Source: an uncultured Atopobiaceae bacterium (lineage in GTDB: Bacteria > Actinomycetota > Coriobacteriia > Coriobacteriales > Atopobiaceae). Taken from it: 61,792 nucleotides of DNA. Made by a program: the position numbers and the translations under genes. Shown here in pieces: positions 1 through 19,543 of the stretch; position 1 is the stretch's first letter, and each line of letters begins with the position of its first letter. Below the pieces are notes generated by a model. That model did no database searches. It was given only the letters and a program-made list of their open reading frames with translations, and had not been told where the DNA came from. The stretch is taken from assembly GCA_947581665.1 (NCBI GenBank), contig CANPVI010000001.1:1-61792 (forward strand), read 5' to 3'.

Positions 1-980
1 TACGCGCGCTGCAGGGGGATCATGCGGTCGACGACGGACGTTCCGAAGAACGCCCCCGCGAGCTCGATGCACGTCTGCCGGATAAAGGGCAGGACACGTT
101 CGCCGCGGTCGCCGTTTTTGTAGGGCAGGGGCCCCTCATAGAGGAGCTTGTCCGCCGCTACGATCTCCAACCGGCCCTCGGGGTACGCCCCCGTGGGACG
201 GGTATACCGTTCGATGAGGATCTCTCTTCCCTCTTCGGCATGCCGGCCGTCGCCGTCGAAGGCGCGCTTCCAGCCGCTCGCAGAGGAATAGGGCGCGAGA
301 GGGAATTCGTCGATCGTGCGCCCCGCAAGTTCGACGCCGAAGCGCTCATAGATGTCCGAAACGGGCACGGCTTTGGCGTGAATGATACTCTTGACCTCGG
401 ACATGGTACTCGCGGAGAGGCTGTCCGGGTAAATTTCGAAGGGAGAGAGCGCCGCCACGTTGACATCTCCCTCGTGGAGCGCGTGCCCCGTCTCGTCGGT
501 GCCGATCACCTTGCCCTCGGCAAAGTTCCACACGACCTTGTAAAAGCTCGTGCCACAGACCTCCGACCAGAGCGTCGCCTCGGAGATGACGCGTCCGAGG
601 TCGATGCGGTTTTTGACCGACTTTAAGATGCTCGACGCGATGCGGGCGACGTGCATGTCCGCTTCCGTGTCCGAGAAGGCACGGACTTCGAGGGTGGGCC
701 GCACCTTTGCGAGGCGGGCGAGACGGGTATCGATCGTGGGCGCGATGTGATTGAATGTGCGCCGCGATTCCCACAGAAAGCGTGCGCTCTCCTCCTCAAG
801 CTCCCCCTCGGGCGAGACGTCGCAGTACTGGTTGCCGCTCACGAAGTTCATGTTGAGCTCCCAGCCCCGTTCGAGCTGCCGCCGCATCTCCCTGCGCCGC
901 GCAAAGTCGGCATGGATGTCCCCGACGAGGGCAGCCTTCCGCGCTTCCTCCCGTCTTGCTTCCCATTCTTGTTCGTTCAT
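1..980 (-). CDS. phage portal protein (SPP1 Gp6-like), N-terminal ~326 aa; 3' end lies beyond the left window edge; belongs to the GC-rich flanking prophage
   Basis: Not in the ORF track because no stop lies in the window. Hand translation from ATG 980..978 (AGGAGG 4 nt upstream, ATGA overlap with previous ORF) gives MNEQEWEARREEARKAALVGDIHADF..WELNMNFVSGNQYCDVSPEGELEEES..LWSEVCGTSFYKVVWNF. This is portal-like and lies directly downstream of terminase. Confidence 0.7.
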   Translation of the reverse strand, partial: MNEQEWEARREEARKAALVGDIHADFARRREMRRQLERGWELNMNFVSGNQYCDVSPEGELEEESARFLWESRRTFNHIAPTIDTRLARLAKVRPTLEVRAFSDTEADMHVARIASSILKSVKNRIDLGRVISEATLWSEVCGTSFYKVVWNFAEGKVIGTDETGHALHEGDVNVAALSPFEIYPDSLSASTMSEVKSIIHAKAVPVSDIYERFGVELAGRTIDEFPLAPYSSASGWKRAFDGDGRHAEEGREILIERYTRPTGAYPEGRLEIVAADKLLYEGPLPYKNGDRGERVLPFIRQTCIELAGAFFGTSVVDRMIPLQRA

Positions 981-1270
981 GGTTCCTCCTTTTCAATGCT
1001 TTTGTTTTCGCTTTGGGTAAGTTCCGCAAACCTTCGGAGCAGACGCACTCTCTCCGCTTCGAGCTCCTCGTCCGAAAGACGGGCAAGGTCGGCTCCATCC
1101 TCCATCAGAAGTTTTGCCGCCTTCAGGTCGGGCGGAACGTCCTTTTTGGTCTCCTTGCGCTTGACGAGGCGCAGCTCGCCGTCCTTGGCGTCATACTCCT
1201 CGGTGACCTCCTCGAGGGAGTACCCAAGCGCAACTTTTAAGATGGCTTCCTTGATTTTATCGCACCCCAT
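977..1270 (-). CDS. small phage protein of unknown function between terL and portal (97 aa)
   Basis: ORF 977..1357 trimmed to ATG 1270, just after the terL stop (1275). Sequence MGCDKIKEAILKVALGYSLEEVTEEYDAKDGELRLVKRKETKK.. The stop overlaps the portal ATG. Confidence 0.45.
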   Translation of the reverse strand: MGCDKIKEAILKVALGYSLEEVTEEYDAKDGELRLVKRKETKKDVPPDLKAAKLLMEDGADLARLSDEELEAERVRLLRRFAELTQSENKSIEKEEP

Positions 1271-1274
1271 GTCC

Positions 1275-1913
1275 TCAAAACCCCCTTCGGCGCAGTCTGC
1301 GGATGCGCCTCGATTTATCGCGCTCGATGGCCGATCTGCCGCCCGAAGGACGGGCATTCTGCACCCCGCGCATCAAATAATAACGGATGGCGTCAAGCCC
1401 GTGGTCGTTTTCCTTGACGGGCCGTTCGCCGCTTCCCCAGAAGTATCCCTTGAACTCGCGGATGAGGTTGGGACAGCTCGAAAAGATGTAGAGGTCGGAC
1501 ATGCCGTTGCCGCGCCGCAGATAGCGCTTGACCTCCGCGATGCCGGCAAACACGTCCTTGTTGACGCGCGGATCGGCGAGGATGCCGCACTCGTAAAAGA
1601 GTTCGGTGACGCTCCTGCGGCCGTTTAAGGTCTTTGCCTCGGCGGCGCGGTCGATGATGGCTTTGAGACGCCCCCTTTCGTCCCGCTTCCAACCGAGGGA
1701 ATCGGAGATGCGGGAGATGGCTTCGGCGTGCTCGTCCACCCCCATGCCCGCGGCATAGTGCTCCGCAACGACGTAGACGTTGCCGTCGTAATCGGCCGCG
1801 CACCAGAGCGCGGCGAGCGGATTTTTGAGCCCCGGGTCGATGGAGATGACGTCCTGCCACTCGGGCGGGACGGAGAACGCTCGACCTGTGAAAAGTCTGA
1901 CTTGAAATAACGG
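1275..1913 (-). pseudogene. terL: terminase large subunit, C-terminal (nuclease-domain) part, cut off from its 5' part by the ~59.8-kb insertion
   Basis: ORF 1275..1745 plus the open frame upstream reads ..PPLFQVRLFTGRAFSVPPEWQDVISIDPGLKNPLAALWCAADYDGNVYVVAEHYAAGMGVDEH..ENDHGLDAIRYYLM. No ATPase domain is present on this side. GC is much higher than in the insert. Confidence 0.8.
1909..1913. other. left junction (attL) candidate crossover core, AACGG on + (CCGTT on coding strand)
   Basis: The same pentamer occurs at the right junction (61718..61722) in the same codon phase of the split terL. GC content and coding change abruptly here. Confidence 0.5.
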
Positions 1914-1923
1914 CGGTTGCTTG

Positions 1924-1938
1924 GTGGCAAATTGCCAC
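1924..1938. repeat. perfect palindrome GTGGCAA-A-TTGCCAC, 11 nt inside the element from the crossover core (candidate recombinase half-site)
   Basis: Read directly: ggtGGCAAaTTGCCac. Confidence 0.5.
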
Positions 1939-1969: not shown

Positions 1970-2003
1970 CAAAAAAATACCGACCGCTTTGCTTGCAGTC
2001 GGC
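1970..2003 (-). terminator. rho-independent terminator after the recombinase operon
   Basis: Minus strand reads CCGAC-13 nt-GTCGG followed by TATTTTTTT, 15 nt after the stop of 2019..3545. Confidence 0.6.
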
Positions 2004-2018: not shown

Positions 2019-3545
2019 CTATTCCTTTCTCCCCCATGTCTTTTCGTATATGATTTCATCGATTTCATCCTCCTTGCTGTGGTAGTAATAGGTCTTCACT
2101 TTGGCGACCATTCCGTTGGTCAATTCGAACTCAAAATTCTCTCTCCCGTAGACCGTTATCTTCTTCACGAGTCCCCGAAAGACCTCGGCATCGAACTCGA
2201 TCAACGGCTCCGTCCGCATGATGATTTTGTTGTATCGGCGGAGGTCGTTCTCCGCTTCGATGTTCATCGCATTCGTCCGTAGCAGTTCCTTGCGCTTGTC
2301 CTCCGCCCTCACGATTTGGTTCAGCACTCGGTTGTACTCGCCCTCGACAGGTCCCTCTAACAGCCCTTTGGCTTGCAGTTGTAGGTAGGTGCGCTCCTGT
2401 GCGAGTAGGTGGTCTATCTCGGCATTCAAGGCTACAAGTTCGTCCGACAGAGGCATCTCAATGAGCCGTTTCTTCTTCCCTCGTAACTCATTGAATATCC
2501 GTATGGTGATGTTCTCAAGGGTTTGCAAACGCACACTTGGACTGTCGCATTTGCGATAGCGTTCATCGTCATGACCACCGCATACGAACCGATATTGCTG
2601 TCCGTTGGTGAACCTGCGAGTGTAGGCGTGTCCGCACTTTCCGCATCGGATTGGCACTCCCTCAAGTGGGTTGTCCCCTTTCGGCTGAAAGCAGTCCGCT
2701 TTCGTCTGCCGCAATCTCACCAAGTTTGCTCTCTCCCAGAGTTCCCTGCTGACTATCGGCTCATGGTGGTTCTCGACATAGTATTGTGTTATCTGCCCTG
2801 TGTTCTTGACTTGCCGTCCGTTCAGCAGCACTCGCTTTTCCATAAGGCAGTCGCCCTTGTATTTTTCGTTCTTGATGTAGTACAGAATTGTGGACGGCTT
2901 GAAGGTCTTCCCTGTCGCCGTTCGGATTCCCTCTCGGTTCAGCTTTTGGCATATCAAGGTCGAGTGTCCTGTTTCCGCATACTCTTCGAAGATGCGCCGC
3001 ACGACCGCCGCCTGCTCTGGCACAGGTACGAGTTCACCATATTCCAATTTGTAGCCGTATGGGGTGTTCGGGTTTTGTATCATCATCCCCTTTTCATATC
3101 TCCGCTGAAACCCCCACCGCACGGATTCGGAGATGTCCTCTGCCTCTTCCTGCGCCACATGAGCCATTGTCACGAGGATGATATTATTCCTGTCCTTCAA
3201 GGTGTCGATGTTCTCCTGCTCGAAGTACACGGATATATTGAGTTCGGTCAGCCGTGCTATGGCTCGGACGATGTCCAAGGTGTTCCGTCCGAATCGCTTT
3301 ATGGACTTGCAGAGTATGCGGTCTATGCGTCCGAGTTCGCAGTCCGACAGCATCTGCAAGAATGCCTCTCGCCTGTTTAAGAACCTACCGCTTATGCCGT
3401 TGTCCACATAAATGCCGCAGTTGACCAAGTTTGGTGTCGTATCCATCACTTCATTGAAGTGTCGTATCTGTGAGTCCAAGCTCACGGTTTGGTCTGTCGT
3501 ACTCACCCTGACATACGCTACTGTTCGGTATCGCTGTTCGCTCAT
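2019..3545 (-). CDS. large serine recombinase (3rd in transcription order of three tandem copies)
   Basis: Resolvase catalytic motif YVRVSTTDQ, recombinase domain, Cys-rich zinc ribbon (RCGKCGH..FVCGG..KC) and coiled-coil tail. Start moved to ATG 3545 (GGAGG 5 nt upstream). Confidence 0.9.
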   Translation of the reverse strand: MSEQRYRTVAYVRVSTTDQTVSLDSQIRHFNEVMDTTPNLVNCGIYVDNGISGRFLNRREAFLQMLSDCELGRIDRILCKSIKRFGRNTLDIVRAIARLTELNISVYFEQENIDTLKDRNNIILVTMAHVAQEEAEDISESVRWGFQRRYEKGMMIQNPNTPYGYKLEYGELVPVPEQAAVVRRIFEEYAETGHSTLICQKLNREGIRTATGKTFKPSTILYYIKNEKYKGDCLMEKRVLLNGRQVKNTGQITQYYVENHHEPIVSRELWERANLVRLRQTKADCFQPKGDNPLEGVPIRCGKCGHAYTRRFTNGQQYRFVCGGHDDERYRKCDSPSVRLQTLENITIRIFNELRGKKKRLIEMPLSDELVALNAEIDHLLAQERTYLQLQAKGLLEGPVEGEYNRVLNQIVRAEDKRKELLRTNAMNIEAENDLRRYNKIIMRTEPLIEFDAEVFRGLVKKITVYGRENFEFELTNGMVAKVKTYYYHSKEDEIDEIIYEKTWGRKE

Positions 3546-3574
3546 AATTGCCTCCATATTTTTCGTTATCAACT

Positions 3575-3666: not shown

Positions 3667-5274
3667 TTACTCTATGATGTCGGTGATGGTGATTCCGCAG
3701 CCGAAGTCATAGGTGAGTTCCTTGCCGTCCACCGTGATGCGGTTGACGACCTTTCGGAACATATCCCCATCGAACTCCGTCAGCTTGCCCTTTACGGCTA
3801 CCATGTCCCAGATGGCTTGGAATCTTTCGTTGGTGTGTTCGAGGTCCACTACTTGGAACGACCGCTTTTTCTGCTCCTGTTTAAGTGCTTCAATTTCGGC
3901 GATGAGCTGTTCCCTTTCTCTTTCTCCGCTGATGAGGTCTTCGGCGTTCTGCGCCGCTTTTACCGCCCTTACAAGCTGCCTTTCCTTTGCCGCTATCTTC
4001 TTGGCGAGTTCATCGTTTGCTTGGTCGGTCAGCCGTTCCGCAAGGGTTTCTTGGATGCTCTCGGTTATTCTTTGCACCATTCCGTCCTTGTCTTCTATCA
4101 GCATATTGACCACTCGGATAAAGGATGCGTGGATCTCCGATTCCTTGATGGCGAGCTGCGTGCAGGCATTGTTACCGTTCAGTTTGTGGTTCGAGCAAGT
4201 CCATGTCTTCACATAATTCTCGCCGCTGTAGTATCCGTGCCTGCGGAAGATGCATCCGCATTGGTAGCAGTACACTTTGCTCGACAGCGGATATTTTGAC
4301 GAGTATCCGCCCCTGCCCGACTTAGTGCAAGACCGCAGGCTGCGGCGGTATTCCATCTCTCGCTTCACCCTCTCGAACATTTCATCGCTGACGATTGCCT
4401 CATGGTCGTCCTCGACATAGTATTGCTGTGTGTCCGCCGATGCCGACCGCTTTTTCTTCACCCAAGGCTGATTGATGGTCTTTTGCAGAAGGGCATCGCC
4501 GATGTATTTTTCGTTCTTCAGCATACCCTCTATAGTGCTTTCATCCCACCGATCCAAGCCTGTCGGCGACTTGATTGCTCGGCTCTTCAGTTCTTCGCTT
4601 ATCATCCGATAACTGTACCCTGTAAGGTAGAGTTCGTAGATGAGCCGAACGACCTCGGCTTGCTCTTTGTTGATGACATACTCATGGTTGAGGACATCGT
4701 ATCCGTAGGTCTTTGCTTTCCGCACGAACCCCTGTTCATTGCGCCGCTGTATGCCCCAATTCACGCTGTCGCTCAGACTGTCCGATTCTTCCTGCGCTAT
4801 GGATGCGTACATGGTCAGCATGAAGTTCGTCCGCTTATCGTCCTGTAAGCTGTTCAGCTTCTCCTTCTCGAAGATTACAGGGATGCGCTTTTCTCGGAGT
4901 TGCTCGATGATGGTCAGGCTGTCCAAGACATTTCGGGCGAATCTTGATACCGACTTGACGAGTATCATGTCTATCTTGCCGTTCAGCGCATCGGCTATCA
5001 TCTCACGGAATCTCACCCTTTTCTTCATGCTCCGTCCTGAGATACCCTCATCGGCATAGACACCCACCATCTCCCAATCGGGGTTGGTCAGTATCAGCCG
5101 TGTGTAGTATTCCAACTGGGACTTGAAACTTGTCTGCTGTTCCTCTCTGCCCGTTGAGACTCTGGCATAAGCTGCCACCCTTTTCTTTTGGACAACGATT
5201 GGCGATTCGTCATCCACGAACAATCGTCTGGTGTCGGTCGCAGGGATCACCCTGATTTTTCTTTCTTCACTCAT
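3667..5274 (-). CDS. large serine recombinase (2nd of three; divergent from the other two)
   Basis: AAYARVSTGREEQQTSFKSQ catalytic region, recombinase domain and zinc ribbon (YCYQCGC..WTCSNH..NACTQ). Start set to ATG 5274 (MSEERK), overlapping the upstream stop (TGATG). Confidence 0.9.
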   Translation of the reverse strand: MSEERKIRVIPATDTRRLFVDDESPIVVQKKRVAAYARVSTGREEQQTSFKSQLEYYTRLILTNPDWEMVGVYADEGISGRSMKKRVRFREMIADALNGKIDMILVKSVSRFARNVLDSLTIIEQLREKRIPVIFEKEKLNSLQDDKRTNFMLTMYASIAQEESDSLSDSVNWGIQRRNEQGFVRKAKTYGYDVLNHEYVINKEQAEVVRLIYELYLTGYSYRMISEELKSRAIKSPTGLDRWDESTIEGMLKNEKYIGDALLQKTINQPWVKKKRSASADTQQYYVEDDHEAIVSDEMFERVKREMEYRRSLRSCTKSGRGGYSSKYPLSSKVYCYQCGCIFRRHGYYSGENYVKTWTCSNHKLNGNNACTQLAIKESEIHASFIRVVNMLIEDKDGMVQRITESIQETLAERLTDQANDELAKKIAAKERQLVRAVKAAQNAEDLISGEREREQLIAEIEALKQEQKKRSFQVVDLEHTNERFQAIWDMVAVKGKLTEFDGDMFRKVVNRITVDGKELTYDFGCGITITDIIE

Positions 5275-6806
5275 CAGCACACCTCCGTTACTGCCTTGAT
5301 ATCTATTGATTGTATTTCGTCTTCGCTTGTCGCCCAATACACGATGGTGACGTATGCCACCTCGCCTGATGTCAGGTGGTATGCGAAGTGTTCCCTGTCC
5401 ACAATTACAATTTTGCGGACGATTTGGTCGAACAGTTTGATGTCGAACTCTGCGATTTTCCCTGTTCGCGTGACCGCCGAGTTATATACTCGGAGGTCAT
5501 TCTGCGCCTTGACATTCTGCCCATTCGTTTCGAGCATATCCTTTTTCTGCTCTTCGGCTTTCACGATGCGGTTGAGCAGTTTCCTGTACTCGCCCTCAAT
5601 CTCTCCGTGTAGCAGTCCCCTTGCTTGGAGTTGCAGGTAGGTCTTTTCCTGATTGAGCATTTGGGTGATCTCTCGGTCGAGTTCCCTGACCGCATCCGTG
5701 ACTTGCATCTCCATAAGGGTTTTGCGCTTGCCTTGTATCATGTTGAAGATTTCCACGAATACCTTTTCGATGGTTTCCTTTTTTACATTTTCGCTTTTGC
5801 AAGCGTTCATCCCTCGGCTACCCTTGTAGTAGCACCCATACCGAACCCTTTTGTCTGTCCGCTTGATGCGGATATAGTTATGTCCGCATTTGCCGCAGAC
5901 GATTTTCCCCTTGAACGGATCGGGCTCTCGGTCTTCCTCTTTCACATACTCCGATGTCCTGTGCCGTAGCACCAACCGTTGGCAGTAGTCCCACATTTCT
6001 CGGCTCACTATCGGTTCGTGGTCATTCTCCACATAGTATTGCTGTGCCGCACCCATGTTTTTGATTTTCTTGCCGTCCGCCACCACGTACTTTTGGAGCA
6101 TGGCATCGCCCTTGTACTTTTCGTTCTTGATGATATATAGGACCGTGCTTGCCATGAACGGTCGCCCATGCGCCGAGGTATAGCCGTCTTTATTCAGTCG
6201 CCGTGCTATCTCCGCCGTGCCGTAGCCCTTGGCATACTCTTCGTATATCCGCTTGACGAGTTTCGCCTCTTCGGGGACGATTACGAGTTGCCCATCGTCA
6301 TTGAACTTGTAGCCGAGCGGGGTGTTCGGGTTCACGATGAGTTGTCCCTGCTCGAATCGCTTCTTGAATGTCCATTTGATGGCTTCGGACTTTTCCTCGT
6401 ATTCTTCCTGTGCTATCTGCGCCATCGTTACGAGCAGGATATTGTTGCGGTCCTTGATGGTGTGCAGATTCTCGGTTTCGAAGTACACAGGGATGTTGAG
6501 TTCCGTCAGTCGGCTGACCGCTCGTATCGTATCCAAGGTGCATCGCCCGAACCGCTTGATTGACTTGCACAGGATTAGGTCTATCTTATGCAATTCGGCA
6601 TCTTGCATCATCCGCTTGAAGTCCTTTCTTGCACCGATGAACCGACCGCTGATGCCATTGTCGATGTAGCACCCACAATTCACCATCTGCGGATCGGCAT
6701 CCATGACTTCGTTGAAGTGTCGTACCTGCGATTCGAGTGATACTTCCTGCCCATAGTTCTTGCTCACTCGGCAGTAGGCGACAGTTCGCAATTTTGTTTC
6801 GCTCAT
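5274..6806 (-). CDS. large serine recombinase (1st of three; paralogue-like to 2019..3545)
   Basis: VAYCRVSKNYGQEVSLESQ, ILCKSIKRFGRCTLD and CGKCGHNY..YGCYYKG..NACKS. Start set to ATG 6806 (GGAGG 8 nt upstream). The longer ORF-track N-terminus is a read-through of the promoter module. Confidence 0.9.
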   Translation of the reverse strand: MSETKLRTVAYCRVSKNYGQEVSLESQVRHFNEVMDADPQMVNCGCYIDNGISGRFIGARKDFKRMMQDAELHKIDLILCKSIKRFGRCTLDTIRAVSRLTELNIPVYFETENLHTIKDRNNILLVTMAQIAQEEYEEKSEAIKWTFKKRFEQGQLIVNPNTPLGYKFNDDGQLVIVPEEAKLVKRIYEEYAKGYGTAEIARRLNKDGYTSAHGRPFMASTVLYIIKNEKYKGDAMLQKYVVADGKKIKNMGAAQQYYVENDHEPIVSREMWDYCQRLVLRHRTSEYVKEEDREPDPFKGKIVCGKCGHNYIRIKRTDKRVRYGCYYKGSRGMNACKSENVKKETIEKVFVEIFNMIQGKRKTLMEMQVTDAVRELDREITQMLNQEKTYLQLQARGLLHGEIEGEYRKLLNRIVKAEEQKKDMLETNGQNVKAQNDLRVYNSAVTRTGKIAEFDIKLFDQIVRKIVIVDREHFAYHLTSGEVAYVTIVYWATSEDEIQSIDIKAVTEVC

Positions 6807-6838
6807 AAGCATTACCTCCATTTTCTTTGGTACGCCAA

Positions 6839-6920
6839 AGCATAGCGTAAAAGACAGAAAGAGCCCAGCGAAAACCGCCCCCAAATTAGACTTTTTACGG
6901 AATAATCGAAAGAATTTTAT
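6839..6920 (-). promoter_or_regulatory. promoter module copy 2, upstream of the recombinase operon
   Basis: Minus strand reads ..GGTTTTCGCTGGGCTC-16 nt-TATGCT, then leader hairpin CTTTGG-cgta-CCAAAG (6825..6840) before the SD. Confidence 0.55.
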
Positions 6921-7745: not shown

Positions 7746-8654
7746 TTACCAAATCGCCGAATATCCGCCGAGCTTGTACATAATGAGTTCCGTTGTGCAG
7801 GAGCCCGAATAGTTGCTGCTTGGAAAAGTAGTCGCCGATGATGACACTCGGAGATGGTATTTATTCGCCGTTGTGGTCACCGCTTCGCAGTATATCTGCA
7901 CGTTCTTCACCCCATCCAAATCCACGGTCGAGATGCCGCTGTACGATCCGCTTTTTGCATAAGTGCTGTTGCTCATCGTCCCCAAGCACGCGACACTCGT
8001 ATTGCCCGATGAGTTAGTCACTTTGAGAAAGCACAGGTAGATGCCCGTGCCGGGGATGTTGTATTGCTTTTCGAAACTGAATGTGGTTCTATCAAGCGTG
8101 AGTCCGGGGTTAAAGCTCGGTGTGTTTTTGAGGTCATAATAATCACCGCTCGTAGCCACCGCCGCAAGTCCCGTTATTTTGCCTACTCCGACCGAAGTGA
8201 CCTTTTCATCGGTGACCGCACCTGCGGCGAGTTTCTCCGTGGTTACTGCCCCATCCGCTATCTTGATTGTGGTCACGGCGAGGTCTTGCAGTTTGTCCGT
8301 CCGCACCGCTCCCGTGGCGATTTTTCCGTAGTTCACCGCATGGCTATCAATCTTGCCTTGCGTGATGGAGTTCGCCGCAATATCGTCCTTGTCAACGATG
8401 CTTTTGAAAGCCAATGTCCCGAAGTCCGCGAACCACTTTCGGAGTTTCCCGAATGCCACTTTCAGCGTGTCCCCGCTTGCGATGTTCTCTCTCGTACCGC
8501 TCTGGGTGCTTGTCACCGCCCCGTCTTGCACTTGCGACAAGGCGATTTTGATTTCGTTCAAGTAGCGTTCGTTCTCCGCAAGGATGTTGAAGATACTCGG
8601 TGTGACTTGGTCTTCGGCTTTGTAGTCATTTTTTGGATTCGTCCAAGTTGCCAT
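7746..8654 (-). CDS. tail fibre / receptor-binding protein
   Basis: Last structural gene before the lysis genes. Contains reiterated units ANSITQGKI, HAVNYGKI, GAVRTDKL, LAVTTIKI, GAVTTEKL and GAVTDEKV. Confidence 0.6.
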   Translation of the reverse strand: MATWTNPKNDYKAEDQVTPSIFNILAENERYLNEIKIALSQVQDGAVTSTQSGTRENIASGDTLKVAFGKLRKWFADFGTLAFKSIVDKDDIAANSITQGKIDSHAVNYGKIATGAVRTDKLQDLAVTTIKIADGAVTTEKLAAGAVTDEKVTSVGVGKITGLAAVATSGDYYDLKNTPSFNPGLTLDRTTFSFEKQYNIPGTGIYLCFLKVTNSSGNTSVACLGTMSNSTYAKSGSYSGISTVDLDGVKNVQIYCEAVTTTANKYHLRVSSSATTFPSSNYSGSCTTELIMYKLGGYSAIW

Positions 8655-8663
8655 GATTGCCTC

Positions 8664-10439
8664 CTATTGTTTTCTGCCCCGTGTTTCCTGTGTCAGCCCG
8701 CCATCGTAGTTGAATTTGTTGTACTCGCACACGAGCCGTTCTTTGTCCCCAAATCGGTCGGTGCAGTCGTAGGCGGCTCCTACTTCGAGTTCGGGGTTTC
8801 CTCGCCATGTGGCGGTCAAGCTGCCCTCTCCTGCGGACAAGCGTTTGAGCAGTAGGTTTGCCATGTATTCCGCCTGCTCGAACGACTGCACCAATTCGCT
8901 CGTGGGATGCACATAGGCGATTGCTCCATAGTTGGCGATGCTCTCTTCGTTCCTTGCCGTTACGGTCCGAGTGTTGATATTGATGGCATTGCCCGACACG
9001 GTGATTATCGCCGTCTGCTCTTCCCCAGAGTTATTCCTGATCGTACACTCGCATGAGTTCACACCGCTGTTGAAAGTTACGATTTGCACCATTGCATTGT
9101 CTATCTCCGCGAACGGATATGCAATCTCCGAGGTGTAGTCGATGGTCATGGTTTTCGTTTCGTTCGCTGCCAACCTTATCTCGGTTTCCGCCACATCGAT
9201 GATGTCATCCTCGATGGTCACTTCGCAATAATCCACCGATACCACATTCGAGAAGTCCGTCAGCGATATGTTCGACTTGTAGGAGAATGCGTTGCCGGGG
9301 TTGACGGCGATTGTGCTTGCAATCGGTGTGTCCGTTTCTCCCCTTATGACGATGCGATTGTTCCGATCCACATACATGCGGCAAAGTCCCGCATTGGCGA
9401 TTTCCTGTAAGGCATCCCAACCCGTGGTCTTCGGCAGGAGTGCTGTGTCCACCACAAAGTCTTTCAGCGTGTCCGAGATGCTGTATTCTTCGGGTTTGAA
9501 CCCCATCTTGACCATGATGTCTTCGGCTATCTCATAGAGGGAGATGTCCGTCAACAGCGGAAAGCCGACATAGCTCTTTATCTGCAAGCGCATCAGCCTG
9601 TCGGTCGCCGTGCATTTTACCCATTGGCTGTCCTGCGGTATATCCCACTCATCCGAGTAGAAACATCCGAGCGGCTGGTAGTCGATTTTCCCATCCTTCA
9701 TCTGCCCGATGAACGGGAAAAGTTTTCGGTCGAGCAACATCAGATTCCGCAAGTACCCCTTGTCGAATTTCCGATTTTCGTTGTAGATCGTCACGGTCAT
9801 GGAGTCCGAATTGATGTTGTATGTTCCCTCGGCGGAAGACAATTCCTCGCCGACTTCGAACGTCTGGAGCGCATCGCCCTCGTATATCTCATAGACACGC
9901 TCGAAATTCCGCAAGATTTTGGCACAGGCGTTCGGTTTGCTCCATTTGCTGATAGTCAGTCGCATGGAGGTGATATCGTCCACAACGGTCGAAAAAACGC
10001 GCTCTAAATCGGTGTTCCCCGTTACACTCTCCGTGTGGATCACAGTTCCGTTCCGTTTGTATTCGAGGGTGAAGTCCACGGGGTATTGGTTGAGCTTCGA
10101 GTCCCCTATAACTCGCCAATAGATAATCGGCCGCATCGTAAACGACAATTCGATGAAAGGCTTATTGGCAAACACCCCATTGACATCGGAGAGTCCCCCG
10201 CTCCACCATCCGACCACCAAGGTATCGTCTATCATCCTGAATGTTCCGTCCATCGTGGAGTGTCCGTCCATGGTGCAAGCCTTGACCGTGGGGACGCTCG
10301 GAAGATGATACACATCCTGTGGGTGGCTTATCTCCGAGTTTCCGCTTTCCACAGTCCTGACGTCATGGCTCAATTCTTCGTCCGCATAGACGATTTCCAC
10401 CTTCGCATAGATTTTCCGTGGGTTATCCGAATATGCCAT
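8664..10439 (-). CDS. tail-associated protein (Tal / prophage-tail baseplate hub family)
   Basis: 591 aa, located two genes downstream of the tape measure. The call rests on synteny and size. Confidence 0.6.
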   Translation of the reverse strand: MAYSDNPRKIYAKVEIVYADEELSHDVRTVESGNSEISHPQDVYHLPSVPTVKACTMDGHSTMDGTFRMIDDTLVVGWWSGGLSDVNGVFANKPFIELSFTMRPIIYWRVIGDSKLNQYPVDFTLEYKRNGTVIHTESVTGNTDLERVFSTVVDDITSMRLTISKWSKPNACAKILRNFERVYEIYEGDALQTFEVGEELSSAEGTYNINSDSMTVTIYNENRKFDKGYLRNLMLLDRKLFPFIGQMKDGKIDYQPLGCFYSDEWDIPQDSQWVKCTATDRLMRLQIKSYVGFPLLTDISLYEIAEDIMVKMGFKPEEYSISDTLKDFVVDTALLPKTTGWDALQEIANAGLCRMYVDRNNRIVIRGETDTPIASTIAVNPGNAFSYKSNISLTDFSNVVSVDYCEVTIEDDIIDVAETEIRLAANETKTMTIDYTSEIAYPFAEIDNAMVQIVTFNSGVNSCECTIRNNSGEEQTAIITVSGNAININTRTVTARNEESIANYGAIAYVHPTSELVQSFEQAEYMANLLLKRLSAGEGSLTATWRGNPELEVGAAYDCTDRFGDKERLVCEYNKFNYDGGLTQETRGRKQ

Positions 10440-10442
10440 AGG

Positions 10443-10799
10443 TCACCTCTCGGAGAAACTGACGGAGACGCTTTTCCACATCAGTCTGGACTTCGCCCAA
10501 TCGTAATGCGGCTGATAGGTCAGTCCCTCGGACCGTGCCGACATCGTCACGAGCTGTCCCGTTCCGTTGTCATGAAAGGAAATTTCGCAAAACTTATCGC
10601 TCTTCACGGCCGCCGTGAGCGTGGTCATATCTTCTTTCGAGAGATATTCCCAGCTCACATCGACCTTTCGCTTTGTCCCTATCACGTCCACTACCATCGT
10701 GCCGTCTACAGTCCGCTCCGCCTTGTCGAGAATTTCCTGCGAGAAAGACAGGTCGGTGGGTGCTTTGATTGTCTTCCCGTTTATCTTGAAAAAGTCCAT
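10443..10799 (-). CDS. short distal-tail (Dit-like) / phage tail family protein
   Basis: 118 aa, immediately after the tape measure. The call rests on synteny. Confidence 0.45.
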   Translation of the reverse strand: MDFFKINGKTIKAPTDLSFSQEILDKAERTVDGTMVVDVIGTKRKVDVSWEYLSKEDMTTLTAAVKSDKFCEISFHDNGTGQLVTMSARSEGLTYQPHYDWAKSRLMWKSVSVSFSER

Positions 10800-10800
10800 T

Positions 10801-13491
10801 TTACACCCCCTGTAGATTTACGCCATGCCGTTTGTATTCTTTGTTCAGCTTCGGCATCATCAGCCGTGCAAAGGTCTGCCCGTCGATTTCGAGGACGATT
10901 TCCTGTCCGCTGTCGCCGTTCATTCCTCGCATAGCCAACATCCCTTGCAGTAAGCCGTTTATAAGGTCACCATTCGGGTTGCTGCCCGTTCCGAGCATGG
11001 CTCGGTTTGGTGTGGCGGTCAAGTTGAGCGTACTCGCCACCTCCATTGCCGCTCTCTGCATCATCGGTAGATTTTCGTACATCCCCTCCGCCATCATGTC
11101 CATGAGGTTGGGGATCCACTCGTCCGCCGTATGCCCCGGACCTTTCTTGGTCGGCGAACCGAAACCGAGGAAGTCCGCGATTGCATTTCCGACCGACTTC
11201 ACTCCGTCCACCACCCAATTCCATGCTTTCTTGATGCCATCGCCGATGTTTTGAATAAGATTCTTGCCCCAATTGAATGCATCTTTGAAGAGGTTTTGGA
11301 AGAAGTCCCCGACCTTGCCGAACAGTCCTGTGATGGTGTCCCAGATCCACCCTGCGGCAGATTTGATGCCTTCCCAGATGTTCACGAAGAATCCGCTGAT
11401 GCCTTCCCATGCGCTTTTGAAGATGTTTCCGATGGTATCTCCGCAGTTTTTGAAGAAGTTGACCATGCTCTCCCCGAACCCTTTGATGAACTCCCAAATG
11501 CCGAGGAAGATGTTTTTTATCGCCGACCAAAGGCTGCCCGCGACATTCTTCATGTGTTCCCACGCTTCCGACCAGTCGCCACGCAGCACAGCGCAAACGA
11601 CTTGGATGATTTCGAGGATCGCCTGCGCCACGTCAATGACCGCTTCGATGAACGGTCCGAGCGCATCGATGATGCCCGAAAGAACGCTCGACACCACTCC
11701 CCATAATGTCATCACCAGTCCGCCTATCAGCTCGAAGACGGGTTTCAAGGTTTCGTAGAGCGACACGATGGTGTCCCAGAGCGATGCGAACAGGCTCTTT
11801 ATCTTTTCCCAAATCGGTCGCACATAGGAGAAGAATTTGCCGAGCGCATTCATGATGTTCGTAAAACAGGCGGACACGACTTGCCAAATTTTCGAGAAAA
11901 TGTCCTTCACGGTTTCCCATATTTTCTTGCCGTGTTTCTGCCAGAAGTTCTTTATCGCCGTAACAACGTCTATCACGACATCCTTCACGAAGTTCCAGAC
12001 CTTCTCGGCATACGGCTTGATTTTCCCGAAGATGGTTTTGATGCCTTTCCATAGGGTTTTGAGTGCGTTGAGTGCCGTGTTGATGATTTTCTCGCCGTTC
12101 TGTTCCCACCAAGCCTTTATCGCCCCCACCGCATTGAGTATCACGGATTTGATTTTCTCCCAAATCTTGGTTACCGCATTGCGGAATCCTTCGTTGGTTT
12201 TCCACAAATAGACGAGTACCCCGACCACCGCTGCGATGATGCCGATAATGAGCCCGACCTTGGAGAACAGCATCGATCCGACTTTGGCTATCGTTCCTAT
12301 GCTGCCGATGACCTTGCCAATCACGAGCAACAGCGGTCCGATTGCCGCCGCCAAAAGCGCGATGGTCACGATGTTCTTCTTCGTTCCCATCGACAGCCCC
12401 ATGAGTTTCTGCGTGAGTGGCGAAATGTATTTTTGAATGAACTGTCGGATTATCGGGATCAGCACATCGCCGAACGATATTGCTATTTCCTCGATCTCTG
12501 ACTTCAAGATTTTGACTTGCCCCTGTAATGTGTCAAGCTGTGTTGCCGCCATATCGGAGGCTTTGTTTGTCCCCGTTATCGACTCGGTCATCTCTCTGAC
12601 CGCATCTCCGCCCGCCGACATAAGGGCGAGCATACCGGGGCCCGCTCTCGCGCCGAACACTTTCATCGCTTGAGCGGTATCCATGCCTGCGGCACCGAGT
12701 CTGTCAATGATCGTGGCGAGGTCGTTGGTCGCAGGGTTGACCTCATCATAGGTCAGCCCCAATTCCTCGAACACACCGAGTGCCACAGAGGTCGGGTTCA
12801 TGAGCGATACGAGCGATTGACGGAGCGAAGTGCCTGCGGTCGAGCCGTCATATCCTGCGTTATACAGGACGGCAAGTGCGCCCGTTACTTCCTCTATCTC
12901 GTATCCAAGGCTGTGGGCGACTGGTCCGACATACCCCATTGAATTGGAGAGCTTGTCCATGGTTGCCATGGAGTTGCCTATCGCCGCCGCATACACATTG
13001 GTCACTCTCTCCGCTTGGTCTGCCTCCAAACCGAATTGGTTTAAGGCGGAGATTACGGTATCGGTCGTAAAGGCAAGGTCGCTTTGCGTTGCCGATGCAA
13101 GGTTCAAGGTCGCCTCGATGGACGCTGCCATTTGGTCTACCTTGTAGCCCGCCGATGCCATATAGTACAGCGCATCTGCCGCATCGGATGCCGAAAAGAC
13201 GGTTTTGCTACCCATCTCTCTCGCAAGGGCAGTCATCCTTGCCAATTCATCGCCCGTTGCACCCGCGACCGATGCCGCATTCGCCATGCTCTGCTCGAAT
13301 TGCTGTGAGACATTGACGGCGGCCGTTCCGAGTGCCACAAGCGGTGCTGTGATGCTTGCCGTGAGTTTCGTACCCGCCTTTGTGAATCCTGCGGATACCT
13401 TTTGGATCTGTTTTTGTGCAGTCTGTAACCCTTTGGAAAGCGAGGATATATCTGCCGCTATCTTTACGACAAGGTTACGAATTACAGCCAT
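10801..13491 (-). CDS. tail tape measure protein
   Basis: 896 aa. TP901-type core (..MASAGYKVDQMAASIEATLNLASAT..), a central hydrophobic segment, and a long W/F-periodic helical repeat region. Confidence 0.9.
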   Translation of the reverse strand: MAVIRNLVVKIAADISSLSKGLQTAQKQIQKVSAGFTKAGTKLTASITAPLVALGTAAVNVSQQFEQSMANAASVAGATGDELARMTALAREMGSKTVFSASDAADALYYMASAGYKVDQMAASIEATLNLASATQSDLAFTTDTVISALNQFGLEADQAERVTNVYAAAIGNSMATMDKLSNSMGYVGPVAHSLGYEIEEVTGALAVLYNAGYDGSTAGTSLRQSLVSLMNPTSVALGVFEELGLTYDEVNPATNDLATIIDRLGAAGMDTAQAMKVFGARAGPGMLALMSAGGDAVREMTESITGTNKASDMAATQLDTLQGQVKILKSEIEEIAISFGDVLIPIIRQFIQKYISPLTQKLMGLSMGTKKNIVTIALLAAAIGPLLLVIGKVIGSIGTIAKVGSMLFSKVGLIIGIIAAVVGVLVYLWKTNEGFRNAVTKIWEKIKSVILNAVGAIKAWWEQNGEKIINTALNALKTLWKGIKTIFGKIKPYAEKVWNFVKDVVIDVVTAIKNFWQKHGKKIWETVKDIFSKIWQVVSACFTNIMNALGKFFSYVRPIWEKIKSLFASLWDTIVSLYETLKPVFELIGGLVMTLWGVVSSVLSGIIDALGPFIEAVIDVAQAILEIIQVVCAVLRGDWSEAWEHMKNVAGSLWSAIKNIFLGIWEFIKGFGESMVNFFKNCGDTIGNIFKSAWEGISGFFVNIWEGIKSAAGWIWDTITGLFGKVGDFFQNLFKDAFNWGKNLIQNIGDGIKKAWNWVVDGVKSVGNAIADFLGFGSPTKKGPGHTADEWIPNLMDMMAEGMYENLPMMQRAAMEVASTLNLTATPNRAMLGTGSNPNGDLINGLLQGMLAMRGMNGDSGQEIVLEIDGQTFARLMMPKLNKEYKRHGVNLQGV

Positions 13492-13504
13492 ACCCTCACC
13501 TCCC

Positions 13505-13804
13505 TTATTTGATTATGACTCCCTTTTCCGCCGCCATCGCTTTCAGTATGGCATCACTTTTACTGCTTGCTCTCTGGTTCGGTTTCTTCCTTGATTCTCG
13601 GAGCAGTTTCTCAAGCCGTGGCAGTCTTTTCTGCCGTGCGAGTGCTTCGGTGTGCCATGCAAGGCACAGGAGATTTTCGAACTCCTTCTGCTCTTCATGC
13701 TTTCTTTGTTTGGCTATGAGTTGCAGTTCGTAGGGAGTGTACTCGCCCACAACGAGCGGATCCACACCCCACGCGACCACCGCTTGGTCGCAGAGAGCGT
13801 TCAA
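13505..13804 (-). CDS. tail assembly chaperone T-like segment (-1 frame relative to 13819..14136)
   Basis: This frame stays open upstream to 13921 and overlaps the end of the G-like ORF. The ORF-track start is TTG. Confidence 0.5.
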   Translation of the reverse strand: MNALCDQAVVAWGVDPLVVGEYTPYELQLIAKQRKHEEQKEFENLLCLAWHTEALARQKRLPRLEKLLRESRKKPNQRASSKSDAILKAMAAEKGVIIK

Positions 13805-13818
13805 GTCAAAAGCGGCGG

Positions 13819-14136
13819 TTACTTTTCCCCCGGCACTTCGGGGTTGCCCGCCTGCCCCTTGCCGAATGCCTCGGTCAATGCTTCGCCGAGCTTCTCGGCG
13901 ATTTCCGTGAGGTCGGAGAAGTCATCGATGAGTTCGCCGACCTTTTCGATGGTCAGCGTCTTGTCCTCATGGTAGAGTCCGCCGTACACGATGGCAAGCA
14001 AGTCTTTCACCCCGACGTTATTGAGGTCGAGTGTCAATATCGACTTGCCCGTGATGTCTTCGATGGTCGACAAGGCATTCATGCCGTAGCGGAGCGTTCT
14101 CGGTCTGTCGAGATTGATTGTTACACCTTTCTTCAT
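13819..14136 (-). CDS. tail assembly chaperone G-like
   Basis: 105 aa, acidic, located between major tail and tape measure. Ends ..CCG GGG GAA AAG TAA. Confidence 0.65.
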   Translation of the reverse strand: MKKGVTINLDRPRTLRYGMNALSTIEDITGKSILTLDLNNVGVKDLLAIVYGGLYHEDKTLTIEKVGELIDDFSDLTEIAEKLGEALTEAFGKGQAGNPEVPGEK

Positions 14137-14153
14137 AGTTATTTCCTCCCTAT

Positions 14154-14552
14154 TTATGCCGTTTCAAACGACAATGCGCCCGTGCCTGTGAATTCGACGC
14201 TGATGGACACCACATCGTCCACGGGGTCCTCTATCGACAGGCTGTTGATGAATGCCTCGCCCTTGTAGTAGTTCGTTTCGTCCACATAGAGCTTGACCGT
14301 TACCGTTGTCCCTTTCAGGAATGCGTCCTGAAGTGCGGACTGTCCGTCTTTGTCCGTGGGGACTGCATAGTCGCCCTCGCTCGATGCCGTCCACTCTTTC
14401 AGCCCCGTGATGTAGTTTTTCCAATCATCGCCGAGAGCCGTGGTTTCGAGCGTGTCCAAGGACAGTTCAAGCGACCAGTTCTTGATGCCGACCACTTTCT
14501 TGCCGCTTTCTGAACCGATTTCGACCTTTCCGTTCTTTCCTGCTACTGCCAT
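14154..14552 (-). CDS. major tail protein (phi13-family type)
   Basis: MAVAGKNGKVEIG..IKNWSLELSLDTLETTALGDDWKNYITGLKEWTASSEG..; size and position fit. Confidence 0.8.
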   Translation of the reverse strand: MAVAGKNGKVEIGSESGKKVVGIKNWSLELSLDTLETTALGDDWKNYITGLKEWTASSEGDYAVPTDKDGQSALQDAFLKGTTVTVKLYVDETNYYKGEAFINSLSIEDPVDDVVSISVEFTGTGALSFETA

Positions 14553-14561
14553 ATTTCCCTC

Positions 14562-14972
14562 CTATTTTTCGTTGAATAAAAATTCAAATTCGATGCTCGA
14601 CATATATTCCTCGATATCGAATTTCAATGCCGTGTTCCCGTTGTACTCGTAGTCCGACTTGATGAACACGGCTTGGATGTAAAGTCCGCTCATCTCCCCG
14701 TGATAATCTTGGAACAGCCGTTTCACCATGCGGGAAAGTTCCCTTGACTTCTTGTAAGTGTTATGGTGGCAGACGAATTGAATCGTTTGCCGCACGAACC
14801 CCGTGTCGCCTTGTAAGGCGGAGTCGTAGTTGGCGAGAACGGGAGCATAGACGATGGCGGGCAAGGGAGCGTCTTCGGGGAGGAGTATCGGATATATCCG
14901 CCCTTGCACGAGCCCATTGATCTCTGCATCTGCGCAAAGTTCTTCGTACACCGCTTGGCATATATCTTTCAT
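14562..14972 (-). CDS. tail terminator / DUF3168-like neck protein
   Basis: 136 aa; ..RIYPILLPEDAPLPAIVYAPV..; synteny supports the call. Confidence 0.6.
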   Translation of the reverse strand: MKDICQAVYEELCADAEINGLVQGRIYPILLPEDAPLPAIVYAPVLANYDSALQGDTGFVRQTIQFVCHHNTYKKSRELSRMVKRLFQDYHGEMSGLYIQAVFIKSDYEYNGNTALKFDIEEYMSSIEFEFLFNEK

Positions 14973-15370
14973 ATCGACCTCCCCACCGCTCTCGATATTT
15001 CGGCTACTATCGCCTCATTGATTTGTTCTTGGTTGTCATCGACCGCATTCCGCAGAAACGGATTCGCAGGTCTGCCCCTTGCTCCGAGTTCAACGTGCGT
15101 CCCATAGGTCAGCGACTTGTCATAGTCCACTTGCACGGTCGCCTTGGTCTTAGTGGATTTCCCCTCGGTCAGATGCAGACTTTGCTTGAGTGCGCCCGTG
15201 TCCACGGGGCAGTTTTGCTTTGCATCCGCCAAGGCGATTTGTCCGCCCGCTTTCGCACCTTTCATCAAGACCGATGCTGCGGCATCGTCCATCGCTTTGA
15301 GGTCCTTCGCCAATTTGTCTGCGCCCTCGACTCCGACTTTAACTTTCCGCTGCTTTGCGCTGTAACCCAT
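14969..15370 (-). CDS. HK97 gp10-family head-tail joining protein
   Basis: ..QNCPVDTGALKQSLHL..GTHVELGARGRPANPFLRNAV.. Confidence 0.75.
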   Translation of the reverse strand: MGYSAKQRKVKVGVEGADKLAKDLKAMDDAAASVLMKGAKAGGQIALADAKQNCPVDTGALKQSLHLTEGKSTKTKATVQVDYDKSLTYGTHVELGARGRPANPFLRNAVDDNQEQINEAIVAEISRAVGRSI

Positions 15371-15689
15371 AGCTCACCATTTCCTTGCAGTTGATGACCG
15401 TTGCCCTGTGAGCGGTATCGCTGTCGAGCGTCCCGACTATCTCATAGAGCTTGTCGCCGTACTGAATGCGGTGCAAGACCGTCAGCCAAGGCAAGTAGCG
15501 GATGGTTATCCGTACCACTTTCTCGGCTGTGACTTGCTGTGCGAACATCTGCTCCGTTCCGCTCACAGGCTCGATCTCTGCCCATACCTTTGCCACTTCT
15601 CTCCATTCCCCGACTTCGCCGCCGTAGGCATCGCGTTCCTTGAAGAGTTGCAAGATTTGCACCCTTCGGTTGAGATTGCCTATATCCAT
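15339..15689 (-). CDS. head-tail adaptor (head closure protein)
   Basis: MDIGNLNRRVQILQ..DAYGGEVGEWREVAKVWAEIEPVSGTEQ..ITIRY..; typical H-T-join pattern. Confidence 0.75.
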   Translation of the reverse strand: MDIGNLNRRVQILQLFKERDAYGGEVGEWREVAKVWAEIEPVSGTEQMFAQQVTAEKVVRITIRYLPWLTVLHRIQYGDKLYEIVGTLDSDTAHRATVINCKEMVSYGLQRKAAES

Positions 15690-15988
15690 CAGAATGCCTC
15701 CTTGCGGTATGCGAACAGCATTCGGCGAACGAGGTCGAGTGTTTCCTGTATGCTCACTCCCGATTTGTTATCCTTGGATACTTGCCGTTCCTCGAACAGG
15801 GTGGCGGTCAGGATCAAAGCGGCTTGATGGACGGGTTCGGGGACTTCTTGGAAGTCCGTGAGCCTGCGCCGCAGGACTTCCTCAGTCAACACCTCTGCTG
15901 TAACGATAAGCGAGGAAATGAGCGCATCTTCATCGTCCCCGTCCACGCGGAGAAACTCTTTCGTTTCTTGCAATGTCAACACGCTCAT
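15689..15988 (-). CDS. gp6-like head-tail connector
   Basis: MSVLTLQETKEFLRVDGDDEDALISSLIVTAE..; follows the capsid gene. Confidence 0.65.
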   Translation of the reverse strand: MSVLTLQETKEFLRVDGDDEDALISSLIVTAEVLTEEVLRRRLTDFQEVPEPVHQAALILTATLFEERQVSKDNKSGVSIQETLDLVRRMLFAYRKEAF

Positions 15989-15998
15989 TCACCCCCTA

Positions 15999-17288: not shown

Positions 17289-17305
17289 ATATTGATTTCC
17301 TCCAA

Positions 17306-19184: not shown

Positions 19185-19249
19185 TTGCCCTCCCTTTTCC
19201 AAATAATTTGAGCCGTCCTTTCGGGCGGCTCGATCTGTCTTTTTTCCGT

Positions 19250-19543
19250 TTATTTTTTCAGCGGCTTGCTGTCTATCAGCGAGGCGCAGACGTTGTCGAT
19301 TGCTTTCCACTCAGCCGAGCATTTCAGCACCGCATATTTCCCTTGCATCTGCGCTCTGTACACCTTGGCTTGGTGCGCCGCGAACTCTTCGGCGATGATT
19401 TCGGGTGCGTGTTCTACATCGGCGAGGATGCGCTTTTTGAGTTCTTCGACCTTCGCATCGTAGGCTGCGTTTTCCTCTGCGGTCGCGTTGTCATGGAATC
19501 CGTGGCTGTAGTATTTAAGTGTTCTGAAGATGTCTTTTGCCAT
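19250..19543 (-). CDS. hypothetical 97-aa protein (accessory cassette)
   Basis: MAKDIFRTLKYYSHGFHDNATAEENAAYDAKVEELKK..; AGGGAGAG SD; preceded by promoter module 3. Confidence 0.6.
   Translation of the reverse strand: MAKDIFRTLKYYSHGFHDNATAEENAAYDAKVEELKKRILADVEHAPEIIAEEFAAHQAKVYRAQMQGKYAVLKCSAEWKAIDNVCASLIDSKPLKK

Follow-up and report, generated by a model that had tools for sequence, protein, structure and literature searches.

What is a gene for the large subunit of a phage terminase (terL) doing at both ends of one contig, with an entire phage between its halves, and to what kind of element did that gene belong before it was split? The question is raised by contig CANPVI010000001.1 of an uncultured Atopobiaceae bacterium (assembly GCA_947581665.1), the whole of which, at 61,792 nucleotides, is the window analyzed here. 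An earlier reading of the bare sequence, referred to below as the original prediction, had described a large prophage that interrupts terL between its ATPase and nuclease halves and whose removal restores one colinear open reading frame (ORF), and our analysis bears this out; it had also taken the interrupted gene to be part of another prophage, and on this point we arrive at a different view. With a probability of about 80%, we conclude that a temperate phage of 59,842 bp (one copy of the core being counted) was integrated by a serine recombinase into the terL gene of a compact, podovirus-derived cluster that resembles a gene transfer agent (GTA) and is not a rival prophage.

The features that define the insertion are listed here in coordinates of the window (L numbers denote other contigs, P numbers denote proteins, and att denotes the attachment site).

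3..980, minus strand: N-terminal 326 codons of the resident portal gene, which runs off the window start; weak P22_portal match; 71.5% and 68.6% amino acid identity to the portals of L006 and L002, respectively
977..1357, minus strand: small conserved gene between terL and the portal gene, 55-66% identical to its counterparts in L002, L006, L005, and L003
1275..1877, minus strand: C-terminal (nuclease) half of the resident TerL, with a Terminase_6C match; it starts at a Phe codon straddling the core and is colinear with intact TerL only from F-S-V-P-P-E-W
1876..1879, no strand: attL junction, an AACG block; marked by the break of identity in L104, the end of the arm in L001, L002, L086, L087, and L102, and the attP of L113
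1880..1913, no strand: P' arm of the att site, with a AGACTTTT motif at 1891-1898; these 34 bases had been read as terL coding sequence in the original prediction
61509..61717, no strand: P side of the att site; P arm proper at about 61696-61717, with a AGACTTTT motif at 61698-61705; matches the L113 attP (TGTTTGAGCG..AAAAGTCTAACACTAAATATGCC)
61718..61721, no strand: attR junction, an AACG block with the AA core at 61718-61719
61720..61791, minus strand: end of the N-terminal (ATPase) half of the resident TerL, 24 codons (YGKFGVREGLVYPEFEETLHVIPP) that align with intact TerL; the rest lies beyond the window end

Both flanks are what they had been taken for. The reverse complement of 1275..1913 translates as PLFQVRLFTGRAFSVPPEWQDVISIDPG..., ends in a stop codon, and matches Terminase_6C (E=6e-6), while in related loci orthologues of the small ORF (977-1357) and of the portal gene (3-980) likewise come after terL; the L003 homologue of the small gene has a weak match to a terminase-small-subunit PHROG. 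The flanks are also richer in G+C than the insert (0.62 versus 0.503), as had been noted. On the right, the predicted translation YGKFGVREGLVYPEFEETLHVIPP was recovered on the reverse complement of 61791..61720, the start quoted for it (61792) being one base out of frame.

The exact position of the junctions required correction. The original prediction had placed a CCGTT core on both sides, and the 5-mer AACGG (reverse complement CCGTT) does occur at 1909-1913 and 61718-61722, but since it is found 65 times on the plus strand of the window, its sharing carries no weight as junction evidence. When the ORF joined in this way was used to query a protein collection (yielding 264 relatives), it proved to be in frame and free of stop codons, as claimed, but relative to all 11 intact homologues (ca. 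410 residues) it contained 11 surplus residues, LFQVRLFTGRA, between ...HVIxP and FxVPxEWQ. Because this stretch is absent from intact TerL, the left junction had been placed 33 bp off; the right one was correct. Read onward, the right flank gives ...HVIPP-F-V-stop and the left flank gives ...GRA-F-SVPPEWQ, so that a join at the Phe codon yields ...HVIPP-F-SVPPEWQ..., i.e., ...EETLHVIPPFSVPPEWQDVISIDPG.... The corrected product is colinear with the 11 intact proteins and, at the DNA level, aligns without a single gap to 64 alleles that are intact in other species, with TT at the join in every case (64/64). Contig L104, moreover, matches the end of the phage at 98.6% over 5,662 bp, and this match stops right after GCGTT, that is, at base 1876. 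A left junction at 1909-1913 is ruled out by the protein alignment, the DNA alignment, and the L104 break point alike. The only sequence common to both junctions is AACG (plus strand, 1876-1879 and 61718-61721), and the crossover dinucleotide is most likely the AA at 1876-1877 and 61718-61719, or TT on the coding strand; there is no longer target duplication, as is the case for large serine recombinases.

In silico excision at these positions yields ...ATCCCCCCGTTCTCCGTC..., with ...CACGTTATCCCCCCGTTCTCCGTCCCGCCCGAGTGG... as attB and ...AGACTTTTCACAGGTCGAGCGTTTGTTTGAGCGGAAAAAGTCT... as attP. The attP that follows from the corrected junctions (P'-TT-P) is present in an independent contig, L113, which starts with AGACTTCTCACAGGTCAAGCG-TT-TGTTTGAGCGATAAAAGTCTAACACTAAATATGCC, in other words with the P' arm, TT, and a P arm matching the right end of the window (TGTTTGAGCGGAAAAAGTCTAACACTAAATATGCC). 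This contig, from a Logan assembly, was met by chance and provided the one attP-type junction; pattern scans of IMG/VR did not find an intact attP. The attP reconstructed in the original prediction was not found, and it was wrong as a consequence of the 33-bp misplacement. The segment 1924..1938, which had been called a perfect palindrome beside that site, is interrupted by an unpaired base between its two 7-bp arms; it belongs to the phage interior and has no counterpart in related phage arms. Inverted GT(T/C)AGACTTTT motifs are present on both arms, 11 and 13 nucleotides from the TT core. With further copies of AGACTTTT at 61509, 61542, and 61628, five of the window's seven copies are found no more than 230 bp from an end of the insert.

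The same insertion recurs elsewhere. In 12 other contigs, the arm (T/C)AGACTT(T/C)TCA(C/T)AGGTC(A/G)AGCG leads into TerL or capsid gene sequence. An arm scan of metagenomes gave seven loci, of which two, L098 and L099, turned out to be chance matches in unrelated genes. In L001, L002, L086, L087, and L102 (from NCBI, Logan, and ENA assemblies), the arm is followed by TT and then by TerL. Proteins P0006, P0007, P0097, P0120, P0064, and P0040 are TerL C-terminal halves with an N-terminal extension translated from the arm, and the presence of an identical extension on three different TerL alleles implies one phage in three hosts. That the insertion point is identical in many hosts points to site-specific recombination.

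The arm has a second target. In L097, L101, L103, L104, L107, L108, and L109 it is followed by the sequence (T/G)TGGCTnGAnGA... (W-L-E-D-E), which encodes the last ca. 45 residues of the major capsid protein (342-385 of 390), and in L104 and L101 the next genes of the cluster come after this piece. The phage of the window thus occupies terL here, and L104, L107, L108, and L109 carry it in the capsid gene. GGCA is found 17 nucleotides from the core in each of the two target half-sites (terL and capsid gene). At the capsid site, attL (L104 5640-5670 and others) reads GCG-TT-GG in four contigs and GCG-GT-GG in four, as opposed to 36 intact capsid alleles with GT or AT and never TT; this mixture suggests either recombination across a mismatched core or polymorphism of attP.

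Two further contigs contain related arrangements. In L088 (344-3620), two tandem large serine recombinases, one LSR1/3-like and one LSR2-like (see below for these designations), sit at the same TT of TerL, with an arm (...ACGCACATTGGGTT|TTCCGTCCCG) unrelated to that of the window phage. In L089 (8899-9045; a viral contig, the same as L100), the P' arm is followed by about 104 bp that are 82-84% identical to the 3' end of the cluster's major capsid gene, by a different P-like arm (ATGGATTGACAAAAAGTCTAATG), and by the region of the WYL regulator. L089 had been considered as a free phage with a clean attP, a candidate rejected in view of the ca. 104 bp of capsid gene between its arms; the arrangement might reflect a pair of elements that entered the capsid gene 100 bp from each other, elements arrayed in tandem, or the product of an aberrant excision. 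Separately, the interrupted TerL C-terminal halves P0120, P0097, and P0064 were seen to end at one downstream point as well, DDHxMD(E/D)|, and L001 (10600-13330) contains about 2.5 kb with five extra small genes between terL and the portal gene; a second hot spot of insertion may exist at the 3' end of terL.

To which system, then, did the interrupted gene belong? Across L001, L002, L003/4, L005, L118, and L119/120, genes were tabulated for two interrupted loci and for six contigs in which the cluster is intact (four distinct contexts). The resident cluster spans 10-12 kb and comprises TerL, the small protein, an SU10/P22-type portal, a scaffold-like protein, a major capsid protein (phrog_14242, SU10_MCP), and three to four more structural genes, often with a gene for an 848-residue NHL-repeat protein upstream; a holin and a sigma-70-family factor (region 4) were seen in one distant member. 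Contrary to the claim of a second prophage, the cluster is bounded on both sides by host genes (MgtE, dUTPase, gyrA/gyrB, SSB, SpoVAC, homoserine transsuccinylase, and ABC transporters among them), and no integrase, repressor, or replication genes were found around it in the six intact contigs and two interrupted loci.

In a scan with one genome per species, more than 513 species genomes encoded a TerL relative; the best 80 of these matches were all full length and uninterrupted, with 67-100% identity to the query, and all came from Christensenellales-like genomes (e.g., Borkfalkia, Gallimonas, Scatosoma, Coproplasma, and Christensenella). By comparison, the nearest TerL of a GenBank phage is only 30-32% identical to the resident one. 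The true start of TerL lies 68 codons upstream of the usual call, in an extension that holds the Walker A sequence GGNRSGKT; gene callers start the protein at an internal methionine (MARG...), for example, in L006 (9797-10000) and L003 (6208-6411). In a crude and weakly informative test based on naive ORF calls, some multispecies groups had flanking genes in common, and most of the 32 loci were singletons.

A precedent is available in FpGTA of Faecalibacterium, a 10.5-kb TerS-TerL-portal-scaffold-capsid operon of podovirus type (PMC12946183) that is near-ubiquitous within one gut Firmicutes lineage (PMC12946183). The cluster described here resembles it in size (ca. 10 kb), in having a small-terminase-like gene, TerL, portal, scaffold, capsid, and a few other conserved structural genes, in its podovirus affinity, and in having no replication or lysogeny genes. 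The likeness to FpGTA (capsid RCH50849.1, portal RCH50851.1, operon at 2536737-2546346 of CP030777) is one of architecture, and the Christensenellales cluster is a candidate GTA; unlike in that cluster, no prophage insertion has been described in FpGTA. GTA-like packaging has been seen in Christensenellaceae genomes, the responsible genes not being named (PMC12946183). In view of its gene content, the host genes on both sides, its conservation in more than 513 genomes, its ca. 30% identity to phages, and its FpGTA-like architecture, we consider it likely that the resident cluster is a domesticated, GTA-like cluster and not a prophage.

On the side of the inserted phage, the attL junction is adjoined by three tandem genes for large serine recombinases (LSRs).

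1979..2003, minus strand: intrinsic terminator after LSR1, a 9-pair stem followed by a T-run
2019..3572, minus strand: LSR1, the att-proximal recombinase; Resolvase, Recombinase, and Zn_ribbon_recom domains; YxRVS serine motif
3667..5337, minus strand: LSR2, the second large serine recombinase
5274..6884, minus strand: LSR3, the third large serine recombinase, a paralogue of LSR1

Each of the three has resolvase, recombinase, and zinc-ribbon domains: PF00239 matches LSR1, LSR2, and LSR3 with E values of 3e-29, 3e-31, and 6e-22 (N-terminal motifs VRVST, ARVST, and CRVSK, respectively), and PF07508 and PF13408 are found in all of them. LSR1 is 51% identical to LSR3 and 33% identical to LSR2, the latter being 31-34% identical to either of the others. 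Since LSR1 is att-proximal, since a homologue at 91% identity accompanies the same arm in L089, and since a protein 100% identical to it is encoded on seven other contigs, L104-L109 among them, LSR1 is most likely the integrase for the terL site. A recombinase 81% identical to LSR1 (L110-L117) sits in a gene outside the cluster, and its target was not found in any cluster locus; not every relative, therefore, targets the cluster.

The recombinase neighborhood varies among relatives. L113 (1-7660) begins with the attP-type junction and continues with a 7.6-kb unit encoding an HTH_17 protein, a C5 methylase, a McrB-like AAA_5 protein, an LlaJI-like nuclease, and the 81% LSR1 relative; this unit is closed by a variant arm whose neighbor is an unrelated gene (GCG|AT|GATAATG). 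Among L110-L117, the recombinases are separated by differing cargo (RNase III, restriction genes). In related phages, a 470-residue protein with no Pfam or PHROG match is encoded directly beside attL (L002 263-1675, L086 967-2376, L089 7346-8764), where it takes the place of the spacing between LSR1 and att; L001 has it as a fusion with a piece of a capsid gene, suggesting that the L001 phage is a decayed prophage. The window itself encodes a fourth serine recombinase (50716-51843, plus strand; 375 residues), which has no zinc ribbon.

The remainder of the insert is organized as follows.

7746..26766, minus strand: virion module (tail fiber, tail proteins, ParB-methylase, etc.), by Pfam and PHROG matches
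10801-13491, minus strand: tape measure protein, by Pfam and PHROG
15999-17288, minus strand: phage capsid protein, by Pfam and PHROG
17865-19310, minus strand: phage portal protein, by Pfam and PHROG
25216-26766, minus strand: the phage's own TerL, by Pfam and PHROG
27313..45304, minus strand: replication and early region (amidoligase, methyltransferases, primase-helicase, helicase, DNA polymerase)
44702-45304, minus strand: LexA/S24-type repressor, in the early region
52991..61295, minus strand: accessory and defense-like genes (Mrr-ResIII helicase, HATPase protein, C5 cytosine methylase)
60288-61295, minus strand: WYL/WCX regulator, at the right end of the phage

By gene content, the insert is a complete siphovirus-like temperate phage, and its own TerL is ca. 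80% identical to those of 50- to 60-kb gut Lachnospiraceae phages. Several smaller features were noted within it. A SAM riboswitch (45821-45907, minus strand; Rfam RF00162, 51.9 bits versus a threshold of 44.4) lies upstream of a 117-residue ORF (45327-45680) and of the LexA/S24-type repressor gene. An intergenic element of about 100 nucleotides occurs in eight copies (3572-3609, 6821-6924, 19575-19678, 20337-20440, 20882-20985, 24271-24374, 28265-28368, and 29319-29355) upstream of phage genes, LSR1 and LSR3 among them; on the coding strand it reads ...AAAAAAGTTGTGTTTT..GGCCG..TTTCGCTGGGCTCTTTC....TTTACGCTAT..., and its probable role is that of a promoter specific to the phage. In the copy that precedes LSR3, AAAAAGTCTAA is found, a sequence resembling the att arms. 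A 57-nucleotide unit (CCCCCTCCCACAGTAAG...) is present in three tandem copies at 21186-21375 in the head region, with a spacing of 63-70 nucleotides. Finally, a short opposite-strand gene block, which includes the fourth serine recombinase, is found at 49900-52300, and the G+C content drops to 0.42-0.50 from 47 kb to the right end, where the restriction- and defense-like genes cluster; the region around this block may be a nested or accreted element.

Mechanistically, we envisage that attP and the terL site are brought into synapsis by the serine recombinase, cleaved at the central dinucleotide, and rejoined with their halves exchanged. This would place the phage at the TT of the Pro-Phe codons, where a linker connects the ATPase domain of TerL to its nuclease domain. 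The N-terminal half of TerL would then terminate two codons past the junction, in phage DNA, and the C-terminal half would have no start codon of its own until the methionine at residue 57 of the fragment (P0001). With TerL split, we infer that the cluster could not package DNA for as long as the prophage is resident. Together with a directionality factor, precise excision would rebuild terL exactly; no recombination directionality factor was identified.

Several observations weigh against this account as a whole. The window holds only 24 codons of the N-terminal half of TerL, and the uninterrupted allele of the exact host was not found, the closest intact TerL being 64% identical. In alignment A1, the C-terminal half departs from the intact proteins at near-invariant (at least 90%) positions (S57A, H59L, Y61C, V63A, D192N, and E198A), which could reflect divergence of the lineage or else relaxed constraint and decay after the interruption, the latter not being a reversible state. 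The assignment of LSR1 draws on position and co-occurrence only, in a phage with three recombinases, and the homologue in L089 is shorter (438 amino acids). As for the arms, the unequal spacings of AGACTTTT (11 versus 13 nucleotides from TT) put the center of symmetry one base off, and since the motif resembles part of the promoter-like phage repeat, it need not be a recombinase binding site.

Among the alternatives, the one that survives best accepts the insertion as described and adds that the choice of target is adaptive antagonism: a clade of recombinases would knock out the particle and lysis cluster of the host, thereby shielding the lysogen and removing a competitor for packaging. One phage strikes two structural genes of one cluster, a further site in the capsid gene is possible in L089, and in L088 an unrelated arm and recombinase pair has reached the same TerL dinucleotide. 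Yet the genes of the cluster are among the most conserved nonessential sequences in these species, so that a neutral "conserved safe harbor" predicts the same pattern, and the 81%-identical relative of LSR1 targets a gene outside the cluster. Either the phage uses a conserved, dispensable site available in many species, or the prophage benefits from silencing a lysis-linked particle system; the hits in two genes and by two types of element make us lean towards such a benefit, and the extreme conservation of both sites leaves the neutral explanation fully viable. We regard adaptive antagonism as a tentative proposal, with the odds against it. Similarly speculative is a broader proposal, that a clade of serine-recombinase phages and smaller elements in gut Christensenellales has specialized on structural genes of the host GTA (terL and at least one capsid site), reversibly switching the GTA off in lysogens in a conflict of phage with GTA, with the choice between terL (TT) and capsid gene (GT) set by the attP dinucleotide.

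It is unlikely that the insert is a domesticated element of the skin/SPbeta type, in which programmed excision would act as a developmental switch of the host, rebuilding terL and starting particle production. Excision would indeed rebuild an intact ORF (the in silico join being colinear and free of gaps), SpoVAC and similar sporulation genes adjoin the cluster in L002 and L118, and skin and SPbeta, too, rely on an integrase of the large serine recombinase type. Against this, the insert is not a decayed element and has the replication, packaging, and virion genes of a complete phage, that phage occurs at two gene targets and on several alleles of the host, and terL is uninterrupted in all of the best 80 species genomes, indicating that the insertion is not fixed in any lineage sampled.

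Quite improbable, in our view, is the reading of the original prediction that the interrupted terL belongs to a second, ordinary prophage and that the insertion, with its CCGTT core at 1909-1913 and 61718-61722, represents parasitism of phage against phage. The flank does have TerL, the small ORF, and the portal gene in phage order, the join originally proposed is in frame with no stop codon, and integration of one prophage into another is known in Escherichia coli (PMC8112680). Its junctions are refuted by the 11-residue insertion and by the divergence of L104 at 1876 instead of 1913; the eight contexts lack lysogeny and replication genes around the cluster; and high identity across more than 513 species genomes contrasts with ca. 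30% to any GenBank phage.

That the contig is an assembly chimera, with a phage falsely joined to pieces of a terminase gene, might be suspected from its being metagenomic in its entirety and from a right flank of 72-74 bases, the size of an assembly overlap, but is scarcely credible, given that the same arm-TerL junction is present in independent NCBI, ENA, JGI, and Logan assemblies and that both flanks fit a single gene in a single frame. Mu-like transposition with a 5-bp target duplication (AACGG at 1909-1913 and 61718-61722) can be dismissed as next to impossible: the surplus residues in the protein alignment and the L104 break point refute it, 1880-1913 is phage arm and not target, AACGG is frequent in the window, no transposase was found in the presence of three large serine recombinases, and the insertion point is the same in many hosts.

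How does the preferred reading, a temperate phage in the terL gene of a GTA-like cluster, relate to known systems? Prophages that carry large serine recombinases and lie inside host genes, which are restored upon excision, include SPbeta in spsM and skin in sigK (SpoIVCA) of Bacillus subtilis and phi10403S in comK of Listeria, a state of affairs termed "active lysogeny." Like these, the insertion described here involves an enzyme with resolvase, recombinase, and zinc-ribbon domains and a short core inside a coding sequence, leaves no long duplication, and permits in-frame, precise excision in silico; unlike these, it has as its target a phage-derived structural gene of a GTA-like cluster, uses two target genes per phage, and comes with three tandem recombinases.

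Satellites with tyrosine integrases that are inserted in late genes of phages are also known (PMC10111431). These HE-PICIs resemble the present case in their insertion into late or structural phage-type genes at several sites, in their co-orientation with the target, and in a tropism that recurs as new sites evolve. They are, however, small satellites that use tyrosine integrases and reside in lambdoid helper prophages of Gram-negative bacteria, whereas here a full 60-kb serine-recombinase phage is involved, which, with a TerL, portal, capsid, and tape measure of its own in addition to its serine recombinases, does not qualify as a satellite; the resident cluster, in turn, contains only the head genes of what a helper would need. 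The E. coli case likewise places a prophage inside phage-derived chromosomal DNA, but there one full lambdoid prophage has entered another, at sites outside terL and capsid genes (PMC8112680), while the resident element here is, by gene content, not a prophage. A row of three large serine recombinase genes at one end of the element has a parallel in the recombinase triplets of Streptococcus integrative and conjugative elements (ICEs), which are conjugative and have other targets (PMC4701971). Serine-recombinase prophages within genes with exact restoration, late-gene satellites, prophages within prophages, and recombinase triplets are all known already; our literature search found no report of a phage that targets a GTA-type cluster, nor of one attP acting at two genes of one cluster.

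For practical purposes, it should be kept in mind that gene callers and prophage finders will call the cluster a prophage and start its TerL at an internal methionine. One attP with two natural attB sites that differ in their central dinucleotides is relevant to integrase specificity and possibly to engineering. As to the biology of the family, GTAs have been recognized in gut Firmicutes only recently, and the locus offers a candidate cluster behind the packaging seen in Christensenellaceae, conserved in hundreds of species. The precise and repeated insertions in two essential genes of this cluster amount to natural knockouts, and a comparison of lysogens with nonlysogens could test both whether the cluster produces particles and whether the phage gains from silencing it.

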